From NCBI RefSeq assembly GCF_024700885.2, contig NZ_CP117016.1: a DNA stretch of 64,000 nucleotides; one strand, 5' to 3'. This DNA is from Escherichia coli. GTDB taxonomy: Bacteria; Pseudomonadota; Gammaproteobacteria; Enterobacterales; Enterobacteriaceae. Both the position numbers and the translations under genes were made by a program. This document shows, one piece after another, positions 3,001-53,683 of the stretch; position 1 is the first letter of the stretch; every line of letters starts with the position of its first letter. A model generated the notes under the pieces. It did no database searches, had not been told where the DNA came from, and saw only the letters and a program-made list of their open reading frames with translations.

Positions 3001-6000
3001 GCGCCCATGCGCTGGCCTGCGGCTACCTGGACGGGCTGGCCCAGCAGTTTTCCACCCTTGATGCGCCGAAAACGCTCTCTGTCGCCTGGGGCGCATGGGG
3101 AGAAAGCGGTCGGGCGGCCACGCCGGAAATGCTGGCGACGCTCGCCAGCCGAGGTATGGGCGCGTTAAGCGATGCCGAAGGCTGCTGGCACCTGGAACAG
3201 GCGGTGATGCGCGGCGCCCCGTGGCGACTGGCGATGCGCGTTTTTACCGACAAAATGCCCCCGTTACAACAGGCTCTGTTTAACATCAGCGCCACAGAAA
3301 AAGCCGCAACGCCGGTCATTCCTCCTGCTGATGACAACGCCTTTAACGGCAGCCTGAGCGATGAAACAGCGGTGATGGCATGGCTGAAAAAGCGGATTGC
3401 GGTTCAGCTAAGGCTGAGCGATCCGGCGTCACTGCATCCAAACCAGGATCTGTTGCAACTCGGCATGGACTCGCTGCTCTTCCTTGAACTCAGTAGCGAT
3501 ATTCAGCACTACCTGGGTGTACGCATCAATGCGGAACGGGCGTGGCAGGATCTGTCTCCTCATGGACTCACGCAGCTTATCTGTTCTAAGCCAGAGGCGA
3601 CGCCTGCCGCTTCGCAGCCGGAAGTGTTGCGGCACGACGCCGACGAGCGTTATGCGCCCTTCCCTTTGACGCCCATTCAGCACGCCTACTGGCTGGGGCG
3701 AACCCACCTCATTGGCTATGGCGGCGTCGCCTGTCACGTCCTGTTTGAGTGGGATAAACGCCACGATGAGTTCGATCTCGCCATACTGGAGAAAGCATGG
3801 AACCAGCTCATCGCACGCCACGATATGTTGCGTATGGTGGTTGATGCCGACGGGCAGCAGCGAATCCTGGCGACAACGCCGGAGTATCACATCCCGCGTG
3901 ACGATCTGCGCGCGCTTTCCCCGGAAGAACAGCGCATCGCGCTGGAAAAACGGCGGCATGAACTGAGCTATCGCGTTTTGCCTGCCGACCAGTGGCCTCT
4001 TTTTGAGCTGGTGGTCAGCGAAATCGACGATTGCCATTACCGTCTGCATATGAACCTCGACCTTTTGCAGTTTGATGTGCAGAGTTTTAAAGTCATGATG
4101 GACGACCTGGCGCAGGTCTGGCGCGGTGAAACGCTGGCACCGCTCGCTATTACCTTCCGTGATTATGTGATGGCTGAACAGGCGCGCCGACAGACATCGG
4201 CATGGCACGATGCCTGGGATTACTGGCAGGAAAAACTGCCGCAACTGCCCTTAGCGCCAGAGCTGCCGGTGGTTGAGACGCCCCCGGAAACGCCACACTT
4301 CACCACCTTCAAATCGACGATCGGCAAGACAGAATGGCAGGCCGTGAAACAGCGCTGGCAGCAGCAAGGCGTCACACCGTCTGCCGCGCTGCTCACGCTG
4401 TTTGCCGCCACCCTTGAGCGCTGGAGCCGTACCACAACATTTACGCTGAACCTGACGTTCTTCAATCGCCAGCCGATCCATCCGCAAATCAACCAGTTGA
4501 TTGGTGATTTTACCTCCGTCACGCTGGTTGATTTTAACTTCTCAGCGCCGGTGACGTTGCAAGAGCAGATGCAACAGACCCAACAGCGCCTCTGGCAAAA
4601 CATGGCGCACAGTGAAATGAACGGTGTTGAGGTGATCCGTGAGCTGGGCCGCCTGCGCGGATCACAACGTCAACCGCTGATGCCGGTAGTGTTTACCAGT
4701 ATGCTGGGGATGACGCTGGAAGGCATGACTATCGATCAGGCGATGAGCCATCTGTTCGGCGAACCCTGCTATGTATTCACGCAAACGCCGCAGGTCTGGC
4801 TGGATCATCAGGTCATGGAGAGTGACGGCGAGTTGATGTTTAGCTGGTACTGCATGGACAACGTGCTGGAACCCGGCGCTGCCGAGGCGATGTTTAATGA
4901 CTATTGCGCCATCCTGCAAGCCGTCATCGCCGCCCCTGAAAGCCTGAAGACTCTCGCCAGCGGCATCGCCAGGCACATTCCCCGCCGACGCTGGCCGCTG
5001 AACGCGCAGGCGGACTACGACCTGCGGGATATTGAGCAGGCGACGCTCGAATACCCCGGCATCCGGCAGGCCAGAGCGGAAATAACCGAACAGGGCGCGT
5101 TGACGCTGGATATCGTGATGGCCGACGATCCTTCGCCATCAGCGGCGATGCCTGATGAGCACGAACTTACCCAACTGGCGCTGCCGTTGCCTGAGCAGGC
5201 GCAGCTTGATGAGCTGGAGGCGACCTGGCGCTGGCTGGAGGCGCGTGCGCTACAGGGGATCGCGGCTACGCTAAATCGTCACGGCCTGTTTACCACGCCG
5301 GAGATCGCCCATCGCTTTAGCGCAATAGTACAGGCGCTGTCCTCGCAAGCGTCTCACCAGCGTCTGCTGCGCCAGTGGCTACAGTGTCTGACGGAAAGAG
5401 AGTGGTTAATCCGCGAAGGTGAAAGCTGGCGCTGCCGCATTCCGCTCAGCGAGATTCCTGAGCCTCAGGAAGCGTGCCCGCAAAGCCAATGGAGCCAGGC
5501 GCTGGCGCAGTATCTGGAAACCTGCATCGCCCGGCACGACGCCCTCTTCTCCGGGCAGTGTTCTCCGCTGGAATTGCTGTTCAACGAGCAGCATCGCGTT
5601 ACCGACGCGCTGTATCGCGACAACCCCGCCAGCACCTGTCTGAATCGCTATACCGCGCAGATTGCCGCCTTGTGCAGCGCAGAACGGATTCTGGAGGTTG
5701 GCGCCGGAACCGCAGCCACTACCGCGCCGGTGCTGAAGGCCACGCGGAACACGCGACAGTCGTACCACTTCACGGACGTCTCCGCGCAGTTCCTCAATGA
5801 CGCCAGAGCCCGTTTCCATGATGAATCGCAGGTGTCTTATGCCTTGTTCGACATCAACCAGCCGCTGGATTTCACCGCCCACCCGGAGGCGGGTTACGAC
5901 CTGATCGTTGCCGTCAATGTGCTCCACGACGCCAGCCATGTCGTCCAGACGTTGCGCAGATTAAAACTGTTGCTGAAAGCCGGCGGACGTTTGCTGATCG

Positions 6001-7406
6001 TTGAAGCGACGGAGCGAAACAGCGTATTCCAGCTGGCGAGCGTGGGCTTTATTGAGGGATTAAGCGGATACCGCGATTTCCGCCGCCGGGATGAGAAACC
6101 GATGCTCACCCGCTCCGCATGGCAGGAGGTTCTCGTTCAGGCCGGGTTTGCAAACGAGCTGGCGTGGCCCGCGCAGGAATCGTCGCCGCTGCGCCAGCAT
6201 CTGCTGGTAGCGCGTTCGCCTGGCGTAAATCGCCCGGATAAAAAAGCCGTGAGCCGCTATTTACAGCAGCGCTTTGGCACCGGTCTGCCCATTTTACAGA
6301 TCCGGCAAAGAGAAGCGTTATTTACGCCGCTGCATGCCCCGTCTGATGCGCCGACTGAGCCAGCCAAACCCACGCCAGTTGCCGGGGGGAATCCGGCACT
6401 GGAAAAACAGGTGGCTGAACTCTGGCAATCGCTGCTGTCTCGCCCCGTGGCAAGGCATCACGACTTTTTCGAACTGGGCGGCGACAGCCTGATGGCGACA
6501 AGGATGGTCGCGCAGCTAAACCGGAGAGGGATTGCCAGGGCTAACCTTCAGGATCTGTTCAGCCATTCGACGCTGAGCGACTTCTGCGCCCATCTACAGG
6601 CGGCTACGTCAGGAGAGGACAACCCGATACCCCTTTGCCAGGGCGACGGTGAGGAAACCCTGTTTGTCTTCCACGCTTCAGACGGCGATATCAGCGCCTG
6701 GCTGCCGCTCGCTAGCGCGTTGAACAGGCGCGTTTTCGGCCTGCAAGCAAAATCGCCGCAGCGCCTTGCCACGCTCGACCAGATGATCGATGAGTATGTC
6801 GGGTGCATCCGTCGTCAGCAGCCTCACGGCCCTTATGTGCTGGCGGGTTGGTCGTATGGCGCGTTTCTTGCGGCGGGCGCCGCACAACGCCTGTACGCCA
6901 AAGGCGAGCAGGTTCGGATGGTGTTAATCGATCCCGTGTGCCGACAGGATTTCTGTTGCGAAAACCGGGCGGCCCTGCTGCGCCTGTTAGCCGAAGGACA
7001 AACGCCTCTGGCACTGCCCGAACATTTCGACCAGCAGACGCCCGACAGCCAGCTTGCCGACTTTATTAGCCTCGCTAAAACGGCCGGTATGGTGTCGCAA
7101 AACCTGACGCTGCAAGCGGCAGAAACGTGGCTCGACAACATCGCGCATCTGCTGCGTTTACTGACTGAGCATACGCCGGGCGAAAGCGTTCCGGTCCCCT
7201 GTCTCATGGTGTATGCCGCCGGGAGACCCGCGCACTGGACGCCAGCAGAAACCGAGTGGCAGGGCTGGATAAACAACGCCGACGACGCTGTGATTGAAGC
7301 CAGCCACTGGCAAATCATGATGGAAGCCCCCCACGTTCAGGCTTGTGCGCAACACATTACGCGCTGGCTTTGCGCAACCTCAACGCAACCGGAGAACACG
7401 TTATGA
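1..7406 (+). CDS. irp1: Yersiniabactin PKS/NRPS HMWP1, 5'-truncated at window edge (reading frame opens at nt 3; ORF-track Met at 288 is internal)
   Basis: Frame 3 is open from nt 3 to the stop at 7404-7406. Translation shows an acyltransferase motif (GAAHSALLEP), two SAM-methyltransferase motifs (LEVGGGTGG near 1195; LEVGAGTAA near 5695), a KR Rossmann motif (VTGAFGGLGR near 2600), carrier-protein serines (LGMDSLL near 3465; GGDSLMA near 6485), a cyclization-type D-rich motif near 4060 and a thioesterase GWSYG near 6850. Gene order matches the HPI. Confidence 0.9.
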   Translation, partial: LDLAANNGTQHTVFSGPEARLAVFCATLSQHDINYRRLSVTGAAHSALLEPILDRFLDTCAGLHAEPGQIPIISTLTADVIDESTLNQADYWRRHMRQPVRFIQSIQVAHQLGARVFLEMGPDAQLVACGQREYRDNAYWIASARRNKEASDVLNQALLQLYAAGVALPWADLLAGDGQRIAAPCYPFDTERYWKERVSPACEPADAALSAGLEVASRAATALDLPRLEALKQCATRLHAIYVDQLVQRCTGDAIENGVDAMTIMRRGRLLPRYQQLLQRLLNNCVVDGDYRCTDGRYVRARPIEHQQRESLLTELAGYCEGFQAIPDTIARAGDRLYEMMSGAEEPVAIIFPQSASDGVEVLYQEFSFGRYFNQIAAGVLRGIVQTRQPRQPLRILEVGGGTGGTTAWLLPELNGVPALEYHFTDISALFTRRAQQKFADYDFVKYSELDLEKEAQSQGFQAQSYDLIVAANVIHATRHIGRTLDNLRPLLKPGGRLLMREITQPMRLFDFVFGPLVLPLQDLDAREGELFLTTAQWQQQCRHAGFSKVAWLPQDGSPNAGMSEHIILATLPGQAVSAVTFTAPSEPVLGQALTDNGDYLADWSDCAGQPEQFNARWQEAWRLLSQRHGDALPVEPPPVAAPEWLGKVRLSWQNEAFSRGQMRVEARHPAGEWLPLSPAAPLPAPQTHYQWRWTPLNVASIDHPLTFSFSAGTLARSDELAQYDIIHDPHASSRLMIVEESEDTLALAEKVIAALTASAAGLIVVTRRAWRVEENEALSASHHALWALLRVAANEQPERLLAAIDLAENTPWETLHQGLSAVSLSQRWLAARGDTLWLPSLSPNTGCAAELPANVFTGDSRWHLVTGAFGGLGRLAVNWLREKGARRIALLAPRVDESWLRDVEGGQTRVCRCDVGDAGQLATVLDDLAANGGIAGAIHAAGVLADAPLQELDDHQLAAVFAVKAQAASQLLQTLRNHDGRYLILYSSAAATLGAPGQSAHALACGYLDGLAQQFSTLDAPKTLSVAWGAWGESGRAATPEMLATLASRGMGALSDAEGCWHLEQAVMRGAPWRLAMRVFTDKMPPLQQALFNISATEKAATPVIPPADDNAFNGSLSDETAVMAWLKKRIAVQLRLSDPASLHPNQDLLQLGMDSLLFLELSSDIQHYLGVRINAERAWQDLSPHGLTQLICSKPEATPAASQPEVLRHDADERYAPFPLTPIQHAYWLGRTHLIGYGGVACHVLFEWDKRHDEFDLAILEKAWNQLIARHDMLRMVVDADGQQRILATTPEYHIPRDDLRALSPEEQRIALEKRRHELSYRVLPADQWPLFELVVSEIDDCHYRLHMNLDLLQFDVQSFKVMMDDLAQVWRGETLAPLAITFRDYVMAEQARRQTSAWHDAWDYWQEKLPQLPLAPELPVVETPPETPHFTTFKSTIGKTEWQAVKQRWQQQGVTPSAALLTLFAATLERWSRTTTFTLNLTFFNRQPIHPQINQLIGDFTSVTLVDFNFSAPVTLQEQMQQTQQRLWQNMAHSEMNGVEVIRELGRLRGSQRQPLMPVVFTSMLGMTLEGMTIDQAMSHLFGEPCYVFTQTPQVWLDHQVMESDGELMFSWYCMDNVLEPGAAEAMFNDYCAILQAVIAAPESLKTLASGIARHIPRRRWPLNAQADYDLRDIEQATLEYPGIRQARAEITEQGALTLDIVMADDPSPSAAMPDEHELTQLALPLPEQAQLDELEATWRWLEARALQGIAATLNRHGLFTTPEIAHRFSAIVQALSSQASHQRLLRQWLQCLTEREWLIREGESWRCRIPLSEIPEPQEACPQSQWSQALAQYLETCIARHDALFSGQCSPLELLFNEQHRVTDALYRDNPASTCLNRYTAQIAALCSAERILEVGAGTAATTAPVLKATRNTRQSYHFTDVSAQFLNDARARFHDESQVSYALFDINQPLDFTAHPEAGYDLIVAVNVLHDASHVVQTLRRLKLLLKAGGRLLIVEATERNSVFQLASVGFIEGLSGYRDFRRRDEKPMLTRSAWQEVLVQAGFANELAWPAQESSPLRQHLLVARSPGVNRPDKKAVSRYLQQRFGTGLPILQIRQREALFTPLHAPSDAPTEPAKPTPVAGGNPALEKQVAELWQSLLSRPVARHHDFFELGGDSLMATRMVAQLNRRGIARANLQDLFSHSTLSDFCAHLQAATSGEDNPIPLCQGDGEETLFVFHASDGDISAWLPLASALNRRVFGLQAKSPQRLATLDQMIDEYVGCIRRQQPHGPYVLAGWSYGAFLAAGAAQRLYAKGEQVRMVLIDPVCRQDFCCENRAALLRLLAEGQTPLALPEHFDQQTPDSQLADFISLAKTAGMVSQNLTLQAAETWLDNIAHLLRLLTEHTPGESVPVPCLMVYAAGRPAHWTPAETEWQGWINNADDAVIEASHWQIMMEAPHVQACAQHITRWLCATSTQPENTL

Positions 7407-8503
7407 TGCCGTCCGCCTCCCCAAAACAACGCGTACTGATTGTGGGCGCCAAATTTGGCGAAATGTACCTGAATGCCTTTATGCAGCCCCCGGAGGGGCT
7501 GGAACTGGTCGGCCTGCTGGCGCAGGGAAGCGCCCGTTCAAGAGAGCTGGCTCATGCGTTTGGCATTCCGCTGTATACCTCGCCGGAACAGATAACCAGG
7601 ATGCCGGATATCGCCTGTATTGTCGTGCGTTCGACCGTCGCCGGAGGAACCGGTACGCAGCTTGCCAGACACTTTCTGACGCGCGGCGTACACGTCATTC
7701 AGGAGCATCCCCTCCACCCGGATGACATCAGTTCCTTACAAACGCTGGCGCAGGAACAGGGCTGCTGCTATTGGGTAAACACGTTTTATCCGCATACGCG
7801 CGCGGGACGCACATGGCTTCGCGATGCGCAGCAGCTGCGTCGCTGTCTGGCTAAGACGCCGCAGGTGGTCCACGCCACCACCAGCCGACAGTTGCTCTAC
7901 TCCACTCTGGATTTGTTGTTGCTGGCTCTGGGCGTTGATGCCGTCGCCGTGGAGTGCGACGTGGTTGGCAGCTTTAGCGATTTTCACTGTCTGAGACTCT
8001 TCTGGCCGGAGGGAGAAGCCTGCCTGCTGCTTCAGCGCTATCTCGATCCTGACGATCCAGATATGCATAGCCTTATCATGCACCGCCTGCTGCTGGGCTG
8101 GCCGGAAGGTCATCTTTCGCTGGAGGCGAGCTACGGCCCCGTCATCTGGTCATCCAGCCTGTTTGTCGCAGACCATCAGGAGAACGCCCACAGCCTCTAC
8201 CGCAGACCGGAGATCCTGCGCGATCTGCCGGGTCTGACGCGCAGCGCGGCGCCCCTGAGCTGGCGCGACTGCTGCGAAACCGTCGGGCCGGAGGGCGTCA
8301 GCTGGTTGCTACACCAGTTGCGCAGCCATCTGGCGGGCGAACATCCACCAGCGGCCTGCCAAAGCGTACATCAGATCGCGTTATCACGTTTATGGCAGCA
8401 GATTTTACGTAAGACCGGCAATGCGGAGATCAGACGCCTGACGCCGCCGCACCACGACCGGTTAGCCGGTTTCTACAACGATGATGATAAGGAGGCGCTG
8501 TGA
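7403..8503 (+). CDS. ybtU: Thiazolinyl imide reductase (yersiniabactin biosynthesis)
   Basis: 366-aa product starting MMPSASPKQRVLIVGAKFG; the ATG overlaps the irp1 stop (ATGA) and its own stop overlaps the ybtT GTG start. Position between irp1 and ybtT is conserved. Confidence 0.85.
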   Translation: MMPSASPKQRVLIVGAKFGEMYLNAFMQPPEGLELVGLLAQGSARSRELAHAFGIPLYTSPEQITRMPDIACIVVRSTVAGGTGTQLARHFLTRGVHVIQEHPLHPDDISSLQTLAQEQGCCYWVNTFYPHTRAGRTWLRDAQQLRRCLAKTPQVVHATTSRQLLYSTLDLLLLALGVDAVAVECDVVGSFSDFHCLRLFWPEGEACLLLQRYLDPDDPDMHSLIMHRLLLGWPEGHLSLEASYGPVIWSSSLFVADHQENAHSLYRRPEILRDLPGLTRSAAPLSWRDCCETVGPEGVSWLLHQLRSHLAGEHPPAACQSVHQIALSRLWQQILRKTGNAEIRRLTPPHHDRLAGFYNDDDKEAL

Positions 8504-9303
8504 CGCAATCTGCAATGTGCATACCGCTGTGGCCCGCCCGGAACGGCAATACTGCGCATCTGGTCATGTGCCCTTTCGCTGGCGGCAGCAGTAGCGCGTT
8601 TCGCCACTGGCAAGCTGAGCAACTGGCTGATTGCGCGCTTTCTCTGGTGACCTGGCCGGGGCGCGATCGCCTTCGCCATCTGGAACCGCTCAGAAGCATT
8701 ACACAACTGGCGGCACTGCTGGCGAACGAGCTGGAAGCATCCGTATCGCCTGACACGCCGCTTTTACTCGCCGGGCACAGCATGGGGGCGCAGGTGGCGT
8801 TTGAAACCTGCCGACTTCTGGAGCAACGGGGGCTTGCGCCACAAGGACTGATTATTTCCGGGTGCCATGCCCCGCATCTGCATTCTGAACGCCAGCTCAG
8901 CCATCGCGATGATGCCGACTTTATCGCTGAGCTGATAGACATTGGCGGATGTTCTCCTGAACTGCGGGAAAACCAGGAATTAATGTCGCTGTTTCTTCCT
9001 CTTCTGCGCGCTGATTTTTACGCCACCGAGAGCTATCACTACGACTCGCCCGACGTCTGTCCGCCGCTGCGCACGCCTGCGCTGTTATTGTGCGGCAGCC
9101 ACGATCGCGAAGCCTCCTGGCAGCAGGTCGATGCCTGGCGTCAGTGGCTGAGCCACGTTACAGGCCCGGTGGTGATTGACGGCGATCATTTCTATCCCAT
9201 TCAACAAGCCCGGTCCTTTTTTACGCAGATTGTCCGCCATTTTCCCCACGCATTTTCTGCAATGACCGCGTTGCAAAAACAGCCCAGTACTTCAGAAAGG
9301 TGA
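8500..9303 (+). CDS. ybtT: Type II thioesterase (yersiniabactin editing)
   Basis: 267 aa with an alpha/beta-hydrolase GHSMG motif; GTG start overlaps the ybtU stop. Confidence 0.85.
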   Translation: MTQSAMCIPLWPARNGNTAHLVMCPFAGGSSSAFRHWQAEQLADCALSLVTWPGRDRLRHLEPLRSITQLAALLANELEASVSPDTPLLLAGHSMGAQVAFETCRLLEQRGLAPQGLIISGCHAPHLHSERQLSHRDDADFIAELIDIGGCSPELRENQELMSLFLPLLRADFYATESYHYDSPDVCPPLRTPALLLCGSHDREASWQQVDAWRQWLSHVTGPVVIDGDHFYPIQQARSFFTQIVRHFPHAFSAMTALQKQPSTSER

Positions 9304-9306
9304 CGC

Positions 9307-10884
9307 ATGAATTCTTCCTTTGAATCTCTGATTGAACAGTATCCCTTACCCATTGCCGAACAGTTGCACCACTGGGCGGCCCGTTATGCCTCGCGAATTG
9401 CCGTCGTTGATGCAAAGGGGTCGTTAACCTACAGCGCGCTTGATGCACAAGTTGACGAACTTGCCGCAGGTCTGTCATCACTGGGTTTGCGTTCGGGGGA
9501 GCATGTAATTGTGCAGCTTCCCAACGACAATGCGTTTGTTACCCTGCTGTTCGCCTTGTTAAGACTGGGCGTTATCCCCGTGCTGGCGATGCCCTCGCAA
9601 CGGGCGCTGGATATCGACGCGCTGATTGAGCTGGCGCAACCCGTCGCTTACGTTATTCACGGGGAAAACCACGCAGAGCTGGCCCGACAGATGGCGCACA
9701 AACACGCCTGCTTGCGTCATGTTCTGGTCGCTGGAGAGACCGTGAGCGACGATTTTACGCCGCTCTTCTCCCTTCACGGTGAGCGACAGGCATGGCCGCA
9801 GCCTGATGTTTCCGCCACCGCGTTGTTGTTGCTCTCAGGCGGCACAACCGGCACGCCCAAACTCATCCCGCGCCGACATGCCGACTATAGCTATAACTTC
9901 AGCGCTTCTGCTGAACTGTGCGGCATCAGCCAACAGAGCGTGTATCTCGCCGTCCTCCCGGTGGCGCATAACTTTCCGCTGGCCTGCCCCGGTATTCTGG
10001 GAACGCTTGCCTGCGGCGGAAAAGTGGTGCTGACCGACAGCGCCAGCTGTGATGAGGTGATGCCTTTAATCGCGCAGGAAAGAGTGACTCACGTCGCCCT
10101 GGTTCCGGCGCTGGCGCAATTATGGGTGCAGGCCAGGGAGTGGGAAGACAGCGACCTTTCGTCGCTGCGCGTCATTCAGGCAGGCGGCGCCCGGCTCGAC
10201 CCGACGCTTGCTGAGCAGGTTATCGCCACCTTTGACTGTACCCTGCAACAGGTTTTCGGTATGGCGGAAGGCCTGCTCTGTTTTACCCGGCTGGACGATC
10301 CGCATGCCACCATTCTCCACAGCCAGGGGCGCCCGTTGTCCCCTCTGGATGAAATCCGCATCGTTGATCAAGACGAGAACGACGTCGCGCCGGGCGAAAC
10401 CGGGCAATTGTTAACGCGCGGCCCTTATACCATTTCGGGCTATTACCGCGCCCCTGCCCACAACGCGCAGGCCTTTACCGCGCAAGGGTTTTACCGCACA
10501 GGCGACAATGTCAGGCTGGATGAGGTGGGGAACCTGCACGTTGAGGGACGCATAAAAGAGCAGATCAACCGCGCCGGAGAAAAAATAGCCGCGGCTGAAG
10601 TGGAATCGGCACTGCTGCGTTTAGCGGAAGTGCAAGATTGCGCGGTGGTCGCCGCGCCGGACACGCTGCTTGGCGAGCGGATTTGCGCGTTTATCATCGC
10701 GCAGCAGGTGCCAACTGACTATCAGCAGTTGCGTCAACAACTGACCCGTATGGGGCTCAGCGCGTGGAAAATTCCTGACCAAATCGAGTTTCTGGACCAC
10801 TGGCCGCTCACCGCCGTCGGCAAGATAGACAAAAAACGCCTGACGGCTCTCGCCGTCGACCGTTATCGCCATTCTGCCCAATAA
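9307..10884 (+). CDS. ybtE: Salicyl-AMP ligase (adenylation enzyme)
   Basis: 525 aa with adenylate-forming enzyme motifs (SGGTTGTPK, GYYRAP, GDN, EGRIKEQINRAGEK). Confidence 0.9.
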   Translation: MNSSFESLIEQYPLPIAEQLHHWAARYASRIAVVDAKGSLTYSALDAQVDELAAGLSSLGLRSGEHVIVQLPNDNAFVTLLFALLRLGVIPVLAMPSQRALDIDALIELAQPVAYVIHGENHAELARQMAHKHACLRHVLVAGETVSDDFTPLFSLHGERQAWPQPDVSATALLLLSGGTTGTPKLIPRRHADYSYNFSASAELCGISQQSVYLAVLPVAHNFPLACPGILGTLACGGKVVLTDSASCDEVMPLIAQERVTHVALVPALAQLWVQAREWEDSDLSSLRVIQAGGARLDPTLAEQVIATFDCTLQQVFGMAEGLLCFTRLDDPHATILHSQGRPLSPLDEIRIVDQDENDVAPGETGQLLTRGPYTISGYYRAPAHNAQAFTAQGFYRTGDNVRLDEVGNLHVEGRIKEQINRAGEKIAAAEVESALLRLAEVQDCAVVAAPDTLLGERICAFIIAQQVPTDYQQLRQQLTRMGLSAWKIPDQIEFLDHWPLTAVGKIDKKRLTALAVDRYRHSAQ

Positions 10885-10893
10885 GCGCAAACC

Positions 10894-10960
10894 GACCCGA
10901 AACAGGTTGAAATAAACCCGTTTCGGGTAGCACTACTATTAGAAATAGTTATCATTTTCA
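10894..10960 (+). promoter_or_regulatory. fyuA upstream control region: inverted repeat (cccgaaac/gtttcggg, 10896-10927) and an AT-rich Fur-box-like sequence (agaaatagttatcattttc, 10941-10959)
   Basis: Read directly in the 130-bp ybtE–fyuA intergenic region; fyuA/psn is known to be Fur- and YbtA-regulated. Confidence 0.35.
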
Positions 10961-11014
10961 ATTCACCATTGTCGGTATTTTTGGCGTTTCGCCGTCTTAC
11001 AGGGACTCACAACA

Positions 11015-13036
11015 ATGAAAATGACACGGCTTTATCCTCTGGCCTTGGGGGGATTATTGCTCCCCGCCATTGCTAATGCCCAGACTTCACAGCAAGACGA
11101 AAGCACGCTGGTGGTTACCGCCAGTAAACAATCTTCCCGCTCGGCATCAGCCAACAACGTCTCGTCTACTGTTGTCAGCGCGCCGGAATTAAGCGACGCC
11201 GGCGTCACCGCCAGCGACAAACTCCCCAGAGTCTTGCCCGGGCTCAATATTGAAAATAGCGGCAACATGCTTTTTTCGACGATCTCGCTACGCGGCGTCT
11301 CTTCAGCGCAGGACTTCTATAACCCCGCCGTCACCCTGTATGTCGATGGCGTCCCTCAGCTTTCCACCAACACCATCCAGGCGCTTACCGATGTGCAAAG
11401 CGTGGAGTTGCTGCGAGGCCCACAGGGAACGTTATATGGCAAAAGCGCTCAGGGCGGGATCATCAACATCGTCACCCAGCAGCCGGACAGCACGCCGCGC
11501 GGCTATATTGAAGGCGGCGTCAGTAGCCGCGACAGTTATCGAAGTAAGTTCAACCTGAGCGGCCCCATTCAGGATGGCCTGCTGTACGGCAGCGTCACCC
11601 TGTTACGCCAGGTTGATGACGGCGACATGATTAACCCCGCGACGGGAAGCGATGACTTAGGCGGCACCCGCGCCAGCATAGGGAATGTGAAACTGCGTCT
11701 GGCGCCGGACGATCAGCCCTGGGAAATGGGCTTTGCCGCCTCACGCGAATGTACCCGCGCCACCCAGGACGCCTATGTGGGATGGAATGATATTAAGGGC
11801 CGTAAGCTGTCGATCAGCGATGGTTCACCAGACCCGTACATGCGGCGCTGCACTGACAGCCAGACCCTGAGTGGGAAATACACCACCGATGACTGGGTTT
11901 TCAACCTGATCAGCGCCTGGCAGCAGCAGCATTATTCGCGCACCTTCCCTTCCGGTTCGTTAATCGTCAATATGCCTCAGCGCTGGAATCAGGATGTGCA
12001 GGAGCTGCGCGCCGCAACCCTGGGCGATGCGCGTACCGTTGATATGGTGTTTGGGCTGTACCGGCAGAACACCCGCGAGAAGTTAAATTCAGCCTACGAC
12101 ATGCCGACAATGCCTTATTTAAGCAGTACCGGCTATACCACCGCTGAAACGCTGGCCGCATACAGTGACCTGACCTGGCATTTAACCGATCGTTTTGATA
12201 TCGGCGGCGGCGTGCGCTTCTCGCATGATAAATCCAGTACACAATATCACGGCAGCATGCTCGGCAACCCGTTTGGCGACCAGGGTAAGAGCAATGACGA
12301 TCAGGTGCTCGGGCAGCTATCCGCAGGCTATATGCTGACCGATGACTGGAGAGTGTATACCCGTGTAGCCCAGGGATATAAACCTTCCGGGTACAACATC
12401 GTGCCTACTGCGGGTCTTGATGCCAAACCGTTCGTCGCCGAGAAATCCATCAACTATGAACTTGGCACCCGCTACGAAACCGCTGACGTCACGCTGCAAG
12501 CCGCGACGTTTTATACCCACACCAAAGACATGCAGCTTTACTCTGGCCCGGTCGGGATGCAGACATTAAGCAATGCGGGTAAAGCCGACGCCACCGGCGT
12601 TGAGCTTGAAGCGAAGTGGCGGTTTGCGCCAGGCTGGTCATGGGATATCAATGGCAACGTGATCCGTTCCGAATTCACCAATGACAGTGAGTTGTATCAC
12701 GGTAACCGGGTGCCGTTCGTACCACGTTATGGCGCGGGAAGCAGCGTGAACGGCGTGATTGATACGCGCTATGGCGCACTGATGCCCCGACTGGCGGTTA
12801 ATCTGGTCGGGCCGCATTATTTCGATGGCGACAACCAGTTGCGGCAAGGCACCTATGCCACCCTGGACAGCAGCCTGGGCTGGCAGGCGACTGAACGGAT
12901 GAACATTTCCGTCTATGTCGATAACCTGTTCGACCGTCGTTACCGTACCTATGGCTACATGAACGGCAGCAGCGCCGTCGCGCAGGTCAATATGGGTCGC
13001 ACCGTCGGTATCAATACGCGAATTGATTTCTTCTGA
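11015..13036 (+). CDS. fyuA: TonB-dependent outer-membrane receptor for ferric yersiniabactin / pesticin
   Basis: 673 aa with signal peptide, TonB-box region, and a C-terminal aromatic residue ending the beta-barrel (…RIDFF). Confidence 0.9.
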   Translation: MKMTRLYPLALGGLLLPAIANAQTSQQDESTLVVTASKQSSRSASANNVSSTVVSAPELSDAGVTASDKLPRVLPGLNIENSGNMLFSTISLRGVSSAQDFYNPAVTLYVDGVPQLSTNTIQALTDVQSVELLRGPQGTLYGKSAQGGIINIVTQQPDSTPRGYIEGGVSSRDSYRSKFNLSGPIQDGLLYGSVTLLRQVDDGDMINPATGSDDLGGTRASIGNVKLRLAPDDQPWEMGFAASRECTRATQDAYVGWNDIKGRKLSISDGSPDPYMRRCTDSQTLSGKYTTDDWVFNLISAWQQQHYSRTFPSGSLIVNMPQRWNQDVQELRAATLGDARTVDMVFGLYRQNTREKLNSAYDMPTMPYLSSTGYTTAETLAAYSDLTWHLTDRFDIGGGVRFSHDKSSTQYHGSMLGNPFGDQGKSNDDQVLGQLSAGYMLTDDWRVYTRVAQGYKPSGYNIVPTAGLDAKPFVAEKSINYELGTRYETADVTLQAATFYTHTKDMQLYSGPVGMQTLSNAGKADATGVELEAKWRFAPGWSWDINGNVIRSEFTNDSELYHGNRVPFVPRYGAGSSVNGVIDTRYGALMPRLAVNLVGPHYFDGDNQLRQGTYATLDSSLGWQATERMNISVYVDNLFDRRYRTYGYMNGSSAVAQVNMGRTVGINTRIDFF

Positions 13037-13042
13037 TTATTG

Positions 13043-13075
13043 TAAAAGGGATACCGAAAAGGTATCCCTTTTACA
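13043..13075 (+). terminator. Rho-independent terminator after fyuA
   Basis: Perfect hairpin aaaagggatacc-gaaa-ggtatccctttt immediately 3' of the fyuA stop. Confidence 0.6.
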
Positions 13076-13551
13076 CCACTAGTTAAAACCAGTAACTCAG
13101 CAGAGTCGCAAAAAATATTAATCCATAGTGATTATTTAAACAATGAAATTGCGATTAGGATAAATAGATTTAACTTTCTCGTTCCTTTCTCTCCTTATAC
13201 TAAAGAAATAATCATATCAAAATAAAAATTCACAACAGTGCAACATTAAAAAATACAACCAACAAACAATCCTATATACAAGGCACATCTCCAGAATATA
13301 AAAGCACAGACAAACAACCTAAAAAAAACAACCCCATACATATAAATTATTTTATAGGTAAAATAGATTATATATTCTCATAGCTACCACAAACTATACT
13401 AGCCTGAACTATATTTATTCTGCTGCAATCAATGCATACATAACACAAATATCACTCAGGTACACTACTCAAACCACGCTGGGATTTTTCCTCAAGTTAT
13501 AATCATCACCCCGAAAATCATTCGGCATTTACTCATTAAATAGTCACCCCA
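13076..13551. other. AT-rich non-coding spacer at the HPI right end
   Basis: About 470 bp of strongly AT-biased sequence with no ORF of 60 codons or more, in sharp contrast to the GC-rich ybt genes. Confidence 0.5.
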
Positions 13552-13606
13552 GGTGATGCTGCCAACTTACTGATTTAGTGTATGATGGTGTTTTTGAGGT
13601 GCTCCA

Positions 13607-13882
13607 GTGGCTTCTGTTTCTATCAGCTGTCCCTCCTGTTCAGCTACTGACGGGGTGGTGCGTAACGGCAAAAGCACCGCCGGACATCAGCGCTATCTCT
13701 GCTCTCACTGCCGTAAAACATGGCAACTGCAGTTCACTTACACCGCTTCTCAACCCGGTACGCACCAGAAAATCATTGATATGGCCATGAATGGCGTTGG
13801 ATGCCGGGCAACTGCCCGCATTATGGGCGTTGGCCTCAACACGATTTTACGTCACTTAAAAAACTCAGGCCGCAGTCGGTAA
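13607..13882 (+). CDS. insA: IS1 InsA
   Basis: 91 aa starting [24 protein letters not shown] (zinc finger plus HTH). Confidence 0.9.
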
Positions 13883-14304
13883 CCTCGCGCATACAGCCGG
13901 GCAGTGACGTCATCGTCTGCGCGGAAATGGACGAACAGTGGGGCTATGTCGGGGCTAAATCGCGCCAGCGCTGGCTGTTTTACGCGTATGACAGGCTCCG
14001 GAAGACGGTTGTTGCGCACGTATTCGGTGAACGCACTATGGCGACGCTGGGGCGTCTTATGAGCCTGCTGTCACCCTTTGACGTGGTGATATGGATGACG
14101 GATGGCTGGCCGCTGTATGAATCCCGCCTGAAGGGAAAGCTGCACGTAATCAGCAAGCGATATACGCAGCGAATTGAGCGGCATAACCTGAATCTGAGGC
14201 AGCACCTGGCACGGCTGGGACGGAAGTCGCTGTCGTTCTCAAAATCGGTGGAGCTGCATGACAAAGTCATCGGGCATTATCTGAACATAAAACACTATCA
14301 ATAA
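13801..14304 (+). CDS. insB: IS1 InsB (expressed as an InsAB' fusion by -1 frameshift)
   Basis: 167-aa ORF overlapping the insA 3' end in the -1 frame. Confidence 0.85.
13856..13864 (+). promoter_or_regulatory. IS1 programmed -1 ribosomal frameshift motif (A6C)
   Basis: ttaaaaaac lies in the insA/insB overlap. Confidence 0.6.
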
Positions 14305-27082: not shown

Positions 27083-28570
27083 ACCGACTCCTGATTCAAT
27101 TGTATGATGGTATTCATTGAACAGAACAATGGATCCCCCACCATTGCTGACCGCAAAACATTTACACGATCAATACTGCGCGTAATATAATTAAAAATCC
27201 AGCATTCTCAATCCATTACGAAAGAAGATGGCATTGTGGAATAGCCAGACTTCCTCGTGTTAACGTCCGACAAAATGCGTCATTGACAGCGGTTTCTGTG
27301 GATTGACACATTTCATTCAGATAATGAATTAATGCTACTGCCGGACCAACCAGCAAACGGGCATTGTGTTCTGAAATCCAGGCTATTGATTCAACGTCAG
27401 CGACAGATCTGCGCTGTAAAAGAACTTGTAAAACAACGCAATAGAATTATCCGGAATGGTGGCGACTATGCACTAGAACACCACAATTTCGCTCTCTCGG
27501 TAAGGCACTGTCACAGCATTCAACAGAATGTGACTTGCCAGATTTATTAGCGCCACCAGATGTTTAACCGGGTAACCACGACCCAGTCGGGGATATATTC
27601 CATCTTCTCGCTGACATCATCAAGAATAAAAAGGTTTATCACACTCAGAGCAACGTTCTTCAGCAGGCGGGATAATTCTTCAACATTTAAAAGATGTGTT
27701 ATTAAAGGCATACAAACTGGACGTATTGTATTTTCTTTTGGTGGTTGACCTAAGGTAGCAGTTTATCCTGATGCGCTGAGATTTCTGTAATATCTACGTC
27801 AACATTCTCCTCGAATAGAAAATGCAGCCTCGGCAAGTGATTCACATTTTTTAACAAAACGTTGTTAGCGTGCCATTTTCAGAAGCTCTCCAAGAAAGCG
27901 AATTCTTTTCTCAAATTCTGCATTCTCAGACACAGCTTTCTACTCCATGGCAATGGCCCAAATACGAAGTTGCTCAGGATCATTAGTGGTGCTGAGAAGT
28001 TAAATAACCATGCGGAGTACCACTCGTCATCACGTATTTATATATCATGAAGCTATTGTTGTGTTTTGTACATCAGTAGATGTATTCTGATATACTCCTT
28101 TTGCTAGACATAACCTTTCACCTGCTTGCAAAGCTTCTGTGTTCTGACATTGCCAAATTGTTGCAATTCTGTATCCAGCCTTCTTTCAGTCATAGCTTCG
28201 GGCCGCGATAAGACTCACTGATCTGACCCTGATTCCTCTTGCAGACTTTATAGACCAATTAAAATGCAGTTTCTGCAGGTCAACGTCTGACCATCATTGT
28301 CATCACTCTGGCCATTAGAGTAACCTTCTGCATTCATCCTTTTGTAAAAAGTTTATGTCAGTATCAGCAATTAACCGGACCTGATACTGATATGAGTCTT
28401 ACCGCATATACGGTCAATTTCAGCAATTAATTACATTATCCACGCCAAAGTGTTTGTCATCGCAATGATGGTACCTTCTTTCAGACACCATTTTTTCAAC
28501 TCCGTTTTCCACGGACCGCACTCTTATGTCAAGAGTGCGGTGATCCTACCCACGTAATATGGACACAGGC

Positions 28571-29393
28571 CTAAGCGAGGTTCTTGTTTTCAAATTGTTC
28601 CGGACTGAGGCCGCCACACCAACTGTGCCGCCGCCACCGATTGTAATCACATTCGATATAATTAAACACCGTTGCCCGCATTATTTCCCGGCTGATAAAG
28701 TGTTCTCCATGGATACATTCCACTTTCAGCGAATGAAAGAAGCTTTCCACGCAGATTATGCCGCTTCAGTTGCGCCTGATAATCTGCTGAACAGTACTGG
28801 CCTCCACGGTCCGTGTGAACGATAACGTTCCGGGGCCTCTTACGCCGCCATAGCGCCATCTGCAGGGCATCGCAGGCCAGTTGCGCCGTCATGCGTGGCG
28901 ACATTGACCAGCCAATAACGGCACGTGACCACAGGTCAATGACCACTGCCAGATACAGCCAGCCTTCATCTGTACGTAAGTACGTGATGTCTCCTGCCCA
29001 CTTCTGGTTCGGGCCACTGGCGTAAAAATCCTGCTCCAACAGATTTTCTGACACAGGCAGGCCGTGTGCGCGGTAGCTGACCGGGCTGAACTTCCGGGAG
29101 GCCTTTGCCCTCAGTCCCTGACGGCGCAGGCTTGCCGCCACGGTTTTTACGTTAAAGGGGTAACCCTGAGCACGCAGTTCATCCGTCAGGCGTGGGGCAC
29201 CGTAACGCTGTTTTGACCGGGTAAAAGCCGCGAGGACAACGCTGTCGCAGTGTTGGCGGAACTGCTGACGCGTGCTTATCCTTGTCCGCCGCTGACACCA
29301 CGTATACCAGCCGCTGCGGGCCACCCGGAGCACGCGGCACATTGCTTTGATGCTGAACTCAGCCTGATGTTTTTCAATAAAGACATACTTCAT
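28571..29393 (-). pseudogene. insF: IS3 OrfB transposase disrupted by an internal out-of-frame deletion
   Basis: Translation matches InsF up to …KRHNLRG, then about 13 residues are missing and the remaining C-terminus ([18 protein letters not shown]…ENKNLA) continues in another frame. Confidence 0.8.
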
Positions 29394-29689
29394 TTCAGGC
29401 GCTTCGCGAAGTATGTCGCGGCCTTTTGGAGGATAGCCAGCTCTTCATCCCGTTCTGCCAGCTGGCGTTTGAGACGTGCAATCTCGGTAGACATCTCCAG
29501 TTCACGTTCAGAAGACGTCTGCTGATTTTGCTGTTTACTGCGCCAGTTGTAGAGCTGTGATTCATACAGGCTGAGTTCACGGGCTGCGGCAGTAACACCG
29601 ATGCGTTCAGCAAGCTTCAGGGCTTCACTGCGAAATTCAGGCGAATGCTGTTTACGGGGTTTTTTACTGGTTGATACTGTTTTTGTCAT
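29390..29689 (-). CDS. insE: IS3 OrfA transposase subunit
   Basis: 99 aa starting [25 protein letters not shown]. Confidence 0.85.
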
Positions 29690-29775
29690 GTGAGTCACCT
29701 CTGACTGAGAGTTTACTCACTTAGCCGCGTGTCCACTATTGCTGGGTAAGATCACCTTATTGCTGCGCTGATAAT

Positions 29776-30606
29776 ATGGACCGCAAACCTATTGAAGATG
29801 TGATCTTCGAAATTAATAACTTTATCTCGCTCGGTGGTCGCACCATTGTTGATGCCACAGGGTCTGAGTCTATCGGACGAGATGCGCAGGCATTACGAGA
29901 AGTCGCATTAAAAACAGGTCTGAATATTGTTGCTTCCTCCGGTCCCTACCTGGAAAAATTTGAAAGCCAGAGAATTCATAAAACGGTTGATGAACTGGCG
30001 GCAACGATTGATAAAGAATTGAATCAAGGGATTGGCGATACGGATATTCGTGCCGGAATGATCGGTGAAATAGGTGTCTCACCGACATTTACCGAAGCCG
30101 AGCATAACAGCTTGCGGGCTGCCTCGCTGGCACAGATTAACAATCCTCATGTGGCGATGAATATTCACATGCCGGGCTGGCTTCGTCGCGGTGATGAAGT
30201 ACTCGACATTGTGTTAGGTGAAATGGGCGTCTCGCCAAATAAAGTCTCTCTCGCACACTCGGATCCGTCAGGAAAAGACGTGGCGTATCAGCGGAAAATG
30301 CTTGATAAGGGTGTCTGGCTGGAATTCGACATGATTGGCCTAGACATTACCTTCCCGAAAGAGGGAATAGCGCCAGGGGTGCAGGAGACTGCCGATGCCG
30401 TCGCTCATCTCATTGAGTTGGGATACGCCGATCAGCTTGTTCTCAGCCACGATGTCTTCCTTAAACAAATGTGGGCTAAAAATGGCGGTAATGGCTGGGG
30501 ATTTGTTCCAGATGTTTTTCTGGCCTATCTGGCGGAGCGCGGCGTCGATAAAACGATCCTCAAAAAACTCTGTATCGATAATCCCGGACGATTATTGACC
30601 GCATAA
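29776..30606 (+). CDS. Phosphotriesterase-related protein (amidohydrolase fold), probably N-terminally truncated by the IS3 insertion
   Basis: 276 aa with php/yhfV-like fold motifs; the reading frame is open back to the IS3 end at 29755 and lacks the N-terminal HxH metal-binding motif. Confidence 0.6.
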   Translation: MDRKPIEDVIFEINNFISLGGRTIVDATGSESIGRDAQALREVALKTGLNIVASSGPYLEKFESQRIHKTVDELAATIDKELNQGIGDTDIRAGMIGEIGVSPTFTEAEHNSLRAASLAQINNPHVAMNIHMPGWLRRGDEVLDIVLGEMGVSPNKVSLAHSDPSGKDVAYQRKMLDKGVWLEFDMIGLDITFPKEGIAPGVQETADAVAHLIELGYADQLVLSHDVFLKQMWAKNGGNGWGFVPDVFLAYLAERGVDKTILKKLCIDNPGRLLTA

Positions 30607-30639: not shown

Positions 30640-30646
30640 TGTCAAT

Positions 30647-30990
30647 TAATACCCCGCCGTTAAATCATCCACCAAGCGCGAGTCGGATGCGCCGTACAAC
30701 TCACCATCCGACCCAACCATAATGCTTTGCGTGCTGCCCATCGCCTCATTCAGCGCCACTTTCTGACCTTTTGCTTCCAGCAGCTTGAGCGTATCCGGAC
30801 TAAACCCTTTTCAACACGCAGCTCGTCCGGCAACCACTGATGGTGGAAACGAGGCGCATTGGTCGCTTCGGCAACATTCATTCCACAATTGATGCTGTTC
30901 ACCACCATTTGCAGCACGGTAGTGATGATTCAGCTACCGGTAACAAAGTGAGTACATAAAGGCCATACTGTCACGAACAGTGCAAAAGTG
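30647..30990 (-). pseudogene. ggt: Gamma-glutamyltranspeptidase C-terminal fragment with frameshift and nonsense lesions
   Basis: Minus-strand translation …SIMVGSDGELYGASDSRLVDDLTAGY* and, in a shifted frame, …IITTVLQMVVNSINCGMNVAEATNAPRFHHQWLPDELRVEKG, matching the GGT small-subunit C-terminus. Confidence 0.6.
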
Positions 30991-31029
30991 GCTCTTCCGC
31001 AACCTAGGTGAAGATTTTCATGCCAGTGG

Positions 31030-32650
31030 ACTCATTACCCTCCGCCTAAGTAGTTCAAATCCGGCTCGACCATACATCTGGCGTATCAGCACCTTCAGGC
31101 GATTTACATGACCTTCGACAACACCATTACTCCAGCGACTGCTGATTGCCTCACATATAGCCGCAGCATCAGCTTCCATCCCCGCAGCTACGCACCGAAG
31201 TTCTGCTGAGCCGCTTTCGTGGACTCGAGTGAACCAGCTGCTTAGCTGTGATTTATTTTAGGTTTTCAGAATACGGTAGAACTCGAGTACCAGTTGCTGT
31301 GCTATTTTCAACTCCGGTTCTTTTTCACACATCAGACTAATAAATCGGGATGCATAATTTTCTTCGCCCCTGATTATTCTCCAGGGCATCAACCAGCGGC
31401 TTACCCGGAACACTGAAGGAAGTCTTGCGGCAGTAGTAACCGGTGGGTTCCAGCCTTTACGCCATTTGGCAACAGTATCCCTGACGATGGTTTCACTGCC
31501 TGTCCCCCCCCCTGGGCCACCATTTCCCGCCATATCCGGCTGGCATTATAATTACCACTTTCTCGTTGCTCTTTTAACCACTCCCTCCATGGGTCCAGAA
31601 GCCCTCGCTTTGGAGGCCGGGTTGACATTTCAGGGAATGTTCCTGAACGCACCCAGCGACTGACTGTCACTCGCGACAGGCCTGTAATACGGGATATTTC
31701 CCTGAAACTACATCCCTTGTTATGCAGGGCCATAACCTCTGTCCAATGCTGATGCCGTTTTTTGCGGGTTTGCTGTTTAAGGCGTTCCGGACGACGGAGC
31801 GATGCTACAGGCACAGATATTTCTGGCTCAGGTGATTTCTTCAGTGATAACTCTCTGACAACAAGACGTATCAGAGGCATATGTCTGTACATCATTCGTT
31901 CAGGCTCATCACCAATATTTTTTAGCAGGTGCCATCGATCGGCCACCTGTCTGGCCTGAGGTGCACCTTCACGTGCTGCTGTCGCATAGACTCCACTGCG
32001 ATCACGCGAGACAACCTGTATTTCCGGATATTTTCTGAACCAGGTCGCCAGCGTACGCTGATCACGGCCGGGAAGCAGGACGAGGGGACGGTGAGTATCA
32101 AGATTGACTATTAACATACCGCAGCAGTGGCCCCGATGCCACGCCCACTCATCAATACCGACATGAGGCGCGCCTGACTGTTTCGTCTCCGGGGTATTGA
32201 TAACCCTGCGAAGAAGAGTATCAGCACTGCAACGGAGACCCGCTGCCGTTGCAGCCCGTTTTCCAGCCTCACCTCCAGCTATTAATCCCAGTTGACGTTG
32301 TAAATTTTGTAACGCCTGTGAAGACTGTTGGTGTGAACCGGCGAAGGGAGCAAGCGACTCGGCAAAAATTTTACGTGAACAAGCTGGGTTACGGCAGTAC
32401 CAGTGGCGGACGGAAAATACAAGCCATAGCGTCTGTCCTGATCAGGGTAGATGCTGTATCCGGCGCCGACAACAACTATGAACAGAGTCGCTACGCTTAA
32501 AGCATTCAGGACATTGTGCTGTTTTGCGTTTTCCGTGGAGATGGAGGGTTATACCGTCAGAGCTAATAATTTGTCGACTGCATCGCCATCCGCAAGGTAA
32601 CTGTAGAAGTGTCTTAAGAGAGTGCATTGGGTTGCCCATAACTTAAAACA
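31030..32650 (-). pseudogene. ISL3-family transposase remnant (multiple frameshifts)
   Basis: Minus-strand fragments: zinc-finger N-terminus (CPECFKRSDSVHSCCRRR, 32442-32639), central region (VVSRDRSGVYATAAREGAPQARQVADRWHLLKN, 31401-32117) and C-terminus (SNGVVEGHVNRLKVLIRQMYGRAGFEL, about 31040-31130), split across three frames. Element boundaries are approximate. Confidence 0.55.
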
Positions 32651-52132: not shown

Positions 52133-52705
52133 TTACATTTCAGGTTGCGTTATGACAGTCCCAACAGGGTGATAGCGGTAGATCGTTGACAGTCCAATAT
52201 CATAGATAATTGCCAGCCGCTTTCTGTCATACCCTTTCTGGAGCAATCTTGCGATCTGCTCATGCTGCTCCTTCGTCAGTTTCGGGCGACGTCCTCCAAC
52301 TCTTCCTTGTGCTCGCGCAGCAGCCAGTCCAGCCAGCGTGCGCTCAACTATCAGTTCACGCTCCATTTCTGCCAGTGCACCCATCATATGAAAAAAGAAC
52401 CTTCCCATCGGAGTGCTGGTATCGATTGAATCCGTCAGACTGCGAAAATTGACACCTTTTGCGCGTAGCTCTTCTGTGAGAGCAATGAGGTGTTTCATTC
52501 TTCTACCCAACCGATCCAGCTTCCAGACCACCAATGTATCCCCTCTTTTAAGGCACTTTAAAGCGCGTTTCAGGCCTGGTCGTTCCGACTTGGTTCCGCT
52601 CATTTTGTCCTCAAAAATCTGTTCACATCCTGCGCACATTAATGCATTGCGTTGCAAATCTGTGTTTTGGTCATTTGTTGACACACGTATGTAGCCAATC
52701 AGCAT
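52133..52705 (-). CDS. Serine recombinase, DNA invertase of the Gin/Pin/Hin/Cin family
   Basis: 190 aa from MLIGYIRVSTNDQNTDLQRNAL (catalytic Ser in YIRVST), C-terminal HTH; AAGGGAG RBS. The ORF-track extension to 52834 is discounted. Confidence 0.8.
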   Translation of the reverse strand: MLIGYIRVSTNDQNTDLQRNALMCAGCEQIFEDKMSGTKSERPGLKRALKCLKRGDTLVVWKLDRLGRRMKHLIALTEELRAKGVNFRSLTDSIDTSTPMGRFFFHMMGALAEMERELIVERTLAGLAAARAQGRVGGRRPKLTKEQHEQIARLLQKGYDRKRLAIIYDIGLSTIYRYHPVGTVITQPEM

Positions 52706-52776
52706 TAAAAATACTCCCTTTTGAGTGGTTAAAGTACTGAGATAATGTGGGGAGGATTTGAGAGATAAACGTTGGT

Positions 52777-53205
52777 TTGGGGGAAGGCTCGGCGCTGCCC
52801 GTTGGTGTACCTGTTCCGTGGCCCACTGCCACACCGCCAGCAGGCTGGTTAAAGTGCGACGGGCGCGCCTTTACAAAAGAACAATATCCTGTTCTGGCCA
52901 GAGTCTACCCGACCCTCCGTCTTCCCGATTTGCGCGGTGAGTTTATCCGTGGATGGGACGACGGGCGAAAAGTGGATACAGGGCGCGATCTGCTTTCACG
53001 GCAGGATGGTACAAGTTTTTCTCATTACGCAGGTAATTTTGACATTGGGTCTGGTCATTCAATCAATAACTATGACCAAATCCTTGACAACCAACCTGGA
53101 TTCTCCCGTTTTTCATTTGCAGGTCCTTCGCGAGGCGATGGGGTTAATTATGTGACCATTCGTCCCCGTAACATTGCGTTTAATTACATCGTAAGGGCGG
53201 CATAG
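52777..53205 (+). other. Promoterless alternative tail-fibre C-terminal cassette B (no start codon of its own), inverted relative to the tail-fibre gene
   Basis: Begins with the same ~200-bp block (GEGSALPVGVPVPWPTATPPAGWLKCDGRAFTKEQYPVLARVYPTLRLPDLRGEFIRGWD) as the 3' part of the tail-fibre gene, then diverges and ends …RPRNIAFNYIVRAA. Confidence 0.6.
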
Positions 53206-53215
53206 AAACGTTGGT

Positions 53216-53677: not shown

Positions 53678-53683
53678 TACCGT

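Follow-up and report, generated by a model that had tools for sequence, protein, structure and literature searches.

IS3 of Escherichia coli K-12, a member of the IS3 group of the IS3 family, is a 1258-bp insertion sequence that carries the genes insE (orfA) and insF (orfB) between imperfect terminal inverted repeats of about 40 bp (5'-TG...CA-3'). In enterobacteria, IS-associated adjacent deletions and recombination between two IS copies are known to leave a single element between two unrelated flanks, with no target duplication and with the DNA in between gone. The PTE-family enzymes of the amidohydrolase superfamily include the metal-dependent carboxylesterase Pmi1525 from Proteus mirabilis (PDB 3RHG / 4QSF), for which PMC5341072 cites an esterase activity stimulated by metal, and E. 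coli itself encodes Php (YhfV, PDB 1BF6), of Pfam family PF02126. Here we compare with these systems a locus in a stretch of E. coli chromosomal DNA of 64,000 nucleotides (contig NZ_CP117016.1; hereafter the window), at which a shortened IS3 copy lies between a truncated palindrome and a truncated PTE-family gene (Table 1). We are highly confident that this IS3 copy sits at the scar of a deletion of about 13 kb and that a later loss of 44 bp in place would account for its present form, the outcome being a dead IS copy, a pseudogene and the stump of a palindrome.

The element, on the minus strand, is 1214 bp long versus 1258 bp for full-length IS3. Its bounds are given by the terminal motifs of IS3: the right-end motif TGATCCTACCC... 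begins at 28541 and the left-end motif TGATCTTACCC..., in reverse complement, finishes at 29754, each occurring once in the window against 0 occurrences expected by chance in a pattern search, and the termini bounding the element read TGATCCTACCCACG... from 28541 on and, in reverse complement, TGATCTTACCCAGC... up to 29754. Alignment to the full-length 1258-bp IS3 of strain ZYS9073 (L002:501-1758) revealed one 44-bp gap and one SNP, and alignment to a K-12-derived IS3 the identical 44-bp gap and 2 SNPs, which corresponds to 99.8% nucleotide identity with K-12 IS3 outside the gap. The two ends of the window copy align with each other over about 40 nt at 80% identity by blastn and are both identical to the reference, and the K-12 element has the same terminal repeats; an exact-seed repeat search missed them because they share no 8-nt exact seed, and they were confirmed by the pattern search and blastn instead. 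By megablast, more than 4000 records match the window IS3 at 99% identity or more, and IS3 was found in 4685 of the 5426 complete E. coli genomes that served as our reference set, seven of which hold a 100%-identical 1214-bp copy.

Much of the coding sequence agrees with that of K-12 IS3: insE is identical, insF is the same for 216 codons, orfB starts at element nt 362 and overlaps orfA, and the same A-AAA-G motif, CCAAAAGG, is present, from which programmed -1 frameshifting would be predicted. RefSeq marks a 'programmed frameshift' in full-length IS3 copies and labels the corresponding copy of E. coli MLI114 (NZ_CP117013.1) "IS3 family transposase, frameshifted". MLI114 is 100% identical to the window at positions 1-29714; the rest of the window is about 99.7-99.9% identical to it, apart from one inverted prophage segment. 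Judged by its sequence, the window element is a defective member of IS3 by descent.

The defect lies in insF. The gap spans reference positions 1001-1044, between two 10-bp direct repeats, CTGCGTGGAA, at 1001-1010 and 1045-1054. Intact IS3 holds this repeat twice and the window keeps one copy, giving the junction ctgcgtggaaagc, so that the lost 44 bp consist of one repeat and the 34 bp between the two copies. The loss amounts to 14 2/3 codons; because 44 is 2 modulo 3, the two repeats are out of frame with each other, and joining them shifts the frame of InsF. The window protein has 243 residues versus 288, of which the first 216 are identical to the reference, and the C-terminal 72 residues of K-12 InsF are missing. 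Accordingly, the motifs WAGDITY and HTDRGG are present in the translation and CVESFF is absent from the frame, D135 and D195 are retained and E231 is lost, leaving the DD(35)E triad incomplete, and the Pfam rve match to the truncated InsF ends at profile position 93 of 102. Since the frame shifts after InsF residue 216, an OrfAB fusion would keep both aspartates and lack the catalytic glutamate as well as the entire C-terminus; such a transposase is predicted to be inactive, and the 1214-bp copy would be unable to transpose on its own. The OrfA regulator could still be made and, in principle, the element might be moved by the transposase of another IS3. The repeats and the deletion are directly visible, and we infer that the deletion arose by slipped mispairing or microhomology between the 10-bp repeats. 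A literature search found no paper on a 44-bp deletion in IS3.

These results bear out most of what an earlier note, made from the letters of the window, had proposed for the element itself, namely an IS3 copy at 28541-29754, 1214 instead of 1258 bp long, with a frameshifting insF deletion of 44 bp between short direct repeats that is predicted to inactivate it; the alignment to an IS3 reference that the note suggested fixed the deleted bases and disclosed no full-length insF, and only its figure of about 13 codons removed was too low. We also rejected the idea that the 44-bp gap is an artefact of assembly or sequencing. Assemblies can, as a general point, collapse repeats, but the exact 40-nt junction recurs in 530 independently assembled complete genomes and in 17 PLSDB plasmids and the whole 1214-bp copy in the seven genomes mentioned above, and with this recurrence in independent assemblies the chance of an artefact is practically nil.

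Table 1. Features of the IS3 locus in the window, and frequency of its junctions in 5426 complete E. coli genomes
Feature	Position	Strand	Remarks
Palindrome remnant	28508..28541	.	5' arm 28508-28525 (18 nt), loop 28526-30, 3' arm 10-11 nt
Defective IS3 copy	28541..29754	-	Alignments to full-length IS3; terminal motifs each unique in the window
IRR, right terminal inverted repeat, insF 3' side, intact	28541..28580	-	Exact match
Stranded insF 3' remnant, original frame, ends ...ENKNLA	28571..28744	-	ORF 28571-28750; detached from the upstream ORF
Truncated insF' (orfB)	28662..29393	-	216 native residues and a 27-residue out-of-frame tail
Deletion junction, single retained CTGCGTGGAA	28745..28754	-	Its GAA triplet is the former catalytic Glu codon, now in another frame
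insE (orfA)	29390..29689	-	99 codons and stop; translation equals reference; PF01527 HTH_Tnp_1
Programmed -1 frameshift motif, intact	29422..29429	-	Element nt 326, as in the reference
IRL, left terminal inverted repeat, intact	29715..29754	-	Exact match
3' fragment of PTE-family / Pmi1525-like amidohydrolase gene, pseudogene	29755..30606	+	nt 184-1035, codons 62-344 and stop
Left junction (palindrome stump to IS3)			545/5426 genomes
Right junction (IS3 to php nt 184)			493/5426 genomes
40-nt junction of the 44-bp deletion			530/5426 genomes; 543 chromosomal places, 21 plasmid places

On the right, IS3 adjoins nt 184 of a 1035-bp gene, the first 183 nt (61 codons) of which are gone. The remaining open reading frame belongs to PF02126 (E = 4.2e-43, 148 bits, cut-off 22.4), the match beginning at profile position 28 of 298. 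An intact version of the gene (1035 bp, 344 aa) is found in Nissle 1917, strain 2000-3039 and strain 4/1-1, where it closes a cluster encoding a PfkB kinase, a glutamine amidotransferase, a DMT transporter and the PTE-like protein, and the PTE-like gene is present in about half of the reference genomes (2695/5426). The nearest solved structure is that of Pmi1525; the alignment of this protein with WP_000656349.1, the intact 344-aa orthologue of E. coli, runs from end to end (E = 3.6e-174, 582 bits), whereas Php is distant (90 bits, aligned residues 77-340), so that the label 'php-like' used in the earlier note holds at the family level only. The note was right that the reading frame stays open as far as the IS end and has lost the N-terminal metal-binding motif: the 61 lost codons include LPH23EH25L, the HxH metal motif of strand beta-1, which codons 62-344, the part kept in the window, are without, in contrast to Pmi1525. 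The fragment does show the motifs GEIG, NIHMPG, LAHSD and SHDVF, candidates for the remaining metal-ligand positions of the family. Because the HxH motif is lost, the binuclear metal site would be unable to form, and on this sequence evidence we regard the fragment as a dead pseudogene; its RefSeq annotation in MLI114 reads 'phosphotriesterase-related protein, incomplete, missing N-terminus'.

The left flank has a different origin. Thousands of genomes contain the 150 bp to the left of 28541 without an adjoining IS3, and in K-12, Ecol_745 and O157 Xuzhou21 this sequence continues for about 210 bp into the gene of a TonB-dependent receptor (yoeA in K-12). Upstream of the receptor gene, all three strains carry a complete and perfect palindrome, TCCACGGACCGCACTCTT-ATGTC-AAGAGTGCGGTCCGTGGA, which on folding forms an 18-bp stem (-24 kcal/mol, z = -11). 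The left IS3 junction cuts the 3' arm of this palindrome, leaving 10 nt of that arm, or 11 when the T with which IS3 begins is included. What is left at 28516-28540 folds at -12.7 kcal/mol (z = -5.9), and with that T its stem is 11 bp long. The hairpin with a 10-bp stem that had been noticed at the IS end thus exists, but it is incomplete, a stump of the native 18-bp-stem palindrome, and therefore not made by the IS.

A breakpoint inside so unusually stable a palindrome raises the question of whether its position at the foot of the stem is a coincidence. Palindromes promote breakage and slippage, and some members of the IS3 family (IS1397 and ISKpn1) reportedly insert specifically in palindromic units, both of which would favor a palindrome that is functional or that IS3 prefers as a target. 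We nevertheless consider this quite improbable: there is a single instance, and the break lies in an arm and not in the loop. The palindrome occurs once in the window, where it has no Rfam match at a permissive threshold (the intact K-12 version has two sub-threshold chance matches); it was not called a terminator in a terminator/promoter scan and has no T-run on either strand. Moreover, one arm has a G-to-A mismatch in strain 4/1-1 that the other arm does not compensate. Several of these results argue against a conserved role for the palindrome.

The earlier note had the IS3 copy inserted into the php-like gene, and one half of that proposal stands, as the right junction does lie inside a PTE-family reading frame that is open up to the IS end. 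A simple insertion, with the two halves of the gene flanking the IS, is nonetheless refuted for this window and, in our estimation, extremely unlikely, since the DNA on the left comes from upstream of yoeA and not from php, and the triplets flanking the element, cgg on the left and cct on the right, do not form a 3-bp target duplication, unlike those of simple IS3 insertions used as controls (GAT/GAT in K-12 and TAT/TAT in plasmid p573-4). The missing 5' segment of php, which the note had proposed to seek upstream of 28541, is nowhere in the window: sensitive blastn and tblastn searches with the 183 nt returned chance-level matches only, nor does the window match any part of the 5 kb that lie upstream of php in Nissle. 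Finally, neither of the reciprocal junctions, that of the php 5' part with the IRR of IS3 and that of the IRL of IS3 with the yoeA upstream region, is found in the 5426 genomes.

Instead, the two flanks are distant parts of one region. In strain 4/1-1 the breakpoints lie 13,021 bp apart in the same orientation, with similar distances in SA186 and 2/0. By the gene content of 4/1-1, the segment absent from the window comprises yoeA, genes for an ibrB-like protein and a PAPS reductase (ibrB/ibrA-like), a PIG-L deacetylase gene, a polysaccharide cluster with yaiP, an acetyltransferase gene and yaiO, an IS66 fragment, the genes for the PfkB kinase, the glutamine amidotransferase and the DMT transporter, and the 5' end of php; no part of it was found elsewhere in the window. 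Given the 13 kb between the breakpoints and the differing triplets, we conclude that IS3 marks an IS-associated deletion, and that the target duplication is absent because this deletion adjoins the element. The locus differs from known IS-associated deletions in that no intermediate state, whether a single IS3 simply inserted at one of the breakpoints or a pair of IS3 copies around the 13-kb segment, occurs among the 5426 genomes.

Based on these comparisons, we propose that an IS3-associated deletion of about 13 kb, in an island next to cobU, removed the region from yoeA through the first 183 nt of the Pmi1525-like esterase gene and left IS3 at the scar. Most likely, either two directly oriented IS3 copies recombined or one end of a single IS3 attacked a site in the same molecule (intramolecular transposition); either route would leave a single IS whose flanks are unrelated and form no target duplication. 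The resident IS3 would then have lost 44 bp, presumably by slippage or microhomology between the CTGCGTGGAA repeats, which start 44 bp apart. Two other strains carry informative alleles of the same scar. Strain ZYS9073 (L002) has a full-length IS3 at exactly the two junctions of the window, and the copy of strain ECL27829 (L005) keeps the 44 bp and has lost the first 138 nt (the IRR end) together with 48 bp of flank, in a different microhomology deletion. Both alleles fit a rearrangement that came first, followed by independent decay in place in sublineages, which makes this order likely; it is not proven, because IS3 copies at other loci share the 44-bp deletion, and its SNP backgrounds number at least three.

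Each junction was counted separately in the 5426 complete genomes (Table 1). Roughly a tenth of sequenced E. coli genomes have the 44-bp deletion allele, which RefSeq annotates in them as a frameshifted IS3 transposase, and carriers of the junctions include O26:H11 11368, O103, strain 042, NCTC86 and ETEC strains. IS3 copies at unrelated plasmid loci have the identical deletion in 17 PLSDB records, of which we examined three cases: an ETEC 146-kb plasmid, pDEC5B-5 and p573-4, the deleted copy in p573-4 being flanked by a perfect 3-bp duplication, TAT/TAT. Overall, the deletion occurs on at least three SNP haplotypes. For the plasmid copies, a hot spot at the 10-bp repeats, trans-mobilisation and gene conversion all come into consideration, and we favor recurrence or conversion.

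This distribution bears on whether the element came to the scar, or replaced the resident copy, with the 44 bp already missing, either as a trans-mobilised non-autonomous derivative or by gene conversion. Arrival of an already deleted copy or gene conversion is possible, although we judge it unlikely on balance. The identical deletions at unrelated plasmid loci are what it would predict, both terminal repeats of the window copy are intact, and MLI114 has three places that match IS3. The perfect duplication around the p573-4 copy points the same way, but it is equally expected if the deletion came after insertion, and a deletion that sits on at least three SNP haplotypes fits a repeat-flanked hot spot at which it recurs. 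The transposases of the IS3 family prefer to act in cis, which speaks against mobilisation in trans, and the alleles of ZYS9073 and ECL27829, which retain the 44 bp at the exact same junctions, fit a loss in place. We therefore retain the rearrangement followed by loss in place as the likely order of events.

Everything at this locus is known in kind: it is ordinary genome decay around a known element, already annotated as pseudogenes in public genomes, and it carries little weight beyond correct annotation. The repeat-mediated 44-bp deletion is mildly interesting in that it recurs, identical, in IS3 copies at other loci. It is conceivable, though we think it rather improbable, that the 1214-bp variant represents a non-autonomous derivative of IS3, recurrent or mobilised in trans, whose OrfA and glutamate-less OrfAB could dampen IS3 transposition; if so, transposition of IS3 could be dampened in the carriers of the variant, roughly 10% of E. 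coli genomes. The 44-bp-deleted IS3 together with the 13-kb deletion forms a fixed, lineage-marking scar next to cobU, whose junctions could serve for typing, and because of this scar the genes for yoeA, the PfkB kinase, the amidotransferase, the DMT transporter and the esterase are absent or truncated in these strains.

The 44-bp deletion in insF carried by the chromosomal IS3 copy recurs, identically, in IS3 elements at three plasmid loci, one of them on plasmid p573-4 (NZ_CP102857.1), where a TAT triplet on each side of the element forms a perfect target duplication of 3 bp. The plasmid sites are unrelated loci. Because the deletion is found on at least three SNP haplotypes, comparison of the sequences suggests either a deletion hot spot or mobilisation of the deleted element in trans.

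At the same chromosomal locus in strain ECL27829 (L005 3880-3990, corresponding to window 28493-28678), the 44 bp are kept. The right end of this IS3 (138 nt) is gone together with 48 bp of flank, and the loss includes the native palindrome upstream of yoeA. This is a short-homology deletion other than the 44-bp one, and the ECL27829 allele is the same IS3 copy decaying independently. The palindrome also varies in strain 4/1-1 (L015 ~1029-1069, corresponding to window 28508-28541), in which its 3' arm bears an uncompensated G-to-A change. K-12-type genomes have an AT-rich motif resembling a Fur box, GATAATAATTATCATTAC, in the stretch that separates yoeA from the palindrome.

On the 3' side of the php-like gene, the remnants of a gamma-glutamyltransferase gene and an ISL3-family transposase gene are pseudogenes kept in Nissle 1917, 2000-3039 and MLI114. 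The IS110-family element, inserted between or within zinc-ribbon protein genes, appears in the MLI114 annotation as a pseudogene interrupted by an internal stop, and three tRNA-Asn genes lie between the IS1A copy with its adjoining truncated glycosyltransferase gene and cobT.

Coordinates of deleted IS3 copies, other mobile elements and the prophage inversion region
Feature	Location	Remark
IS3, identical 44-bp deletion	L013 (p573-4) 1612-2825	plasmid locus
IS3, identical 44-bp deletion	L011 2312-3525	plasmid locus
IS3, identical 44-bp deletion	L014 1612-2825	plasmid locus
Yersiniabactin high-pathogenicity island, end	within window 1-14304	irp1, ybtU, ybtT, ybtE, fyuA
IS1A	window ~13607-14304	after island end; abuts truncated glycosyltransferase gene
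Gamma-glutamyltransferase gene fragment	window ~30646-30929	start of region 30646-32640
Decayed ISL3-family transposase gene	within window 30646-32640	after gamma-glutamyltransferase fragment
IS110-family element, 1165 bp	window 33344-34508	insertion relative to Nissle 1917
Recombinase family protein gene, Gin/Pin-type	window ~52133-52705	adjoins invertible segment
Whole inversion region	window 52769-54818	invertible part 53208-54815
Inverted repeats, 229 nt	52769-52997 / 53208-53436 vs 54590-54818	bound invertible segment

Within the prophage, a tandem array of four 168-nt units (window 54977-55780; copies 78-96% identical) is contained in a tail-fibre ORF of 557 codons (54298-55971). Sequence comparison with MLI114, otherwise ~99.9% identical, revealed that the invertible part of the tail-fibre region lies in the opposite orientation. 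In this arrangement the segment resembles an active inversion switch for host range, which the window and MLI114 would show in opposite states.
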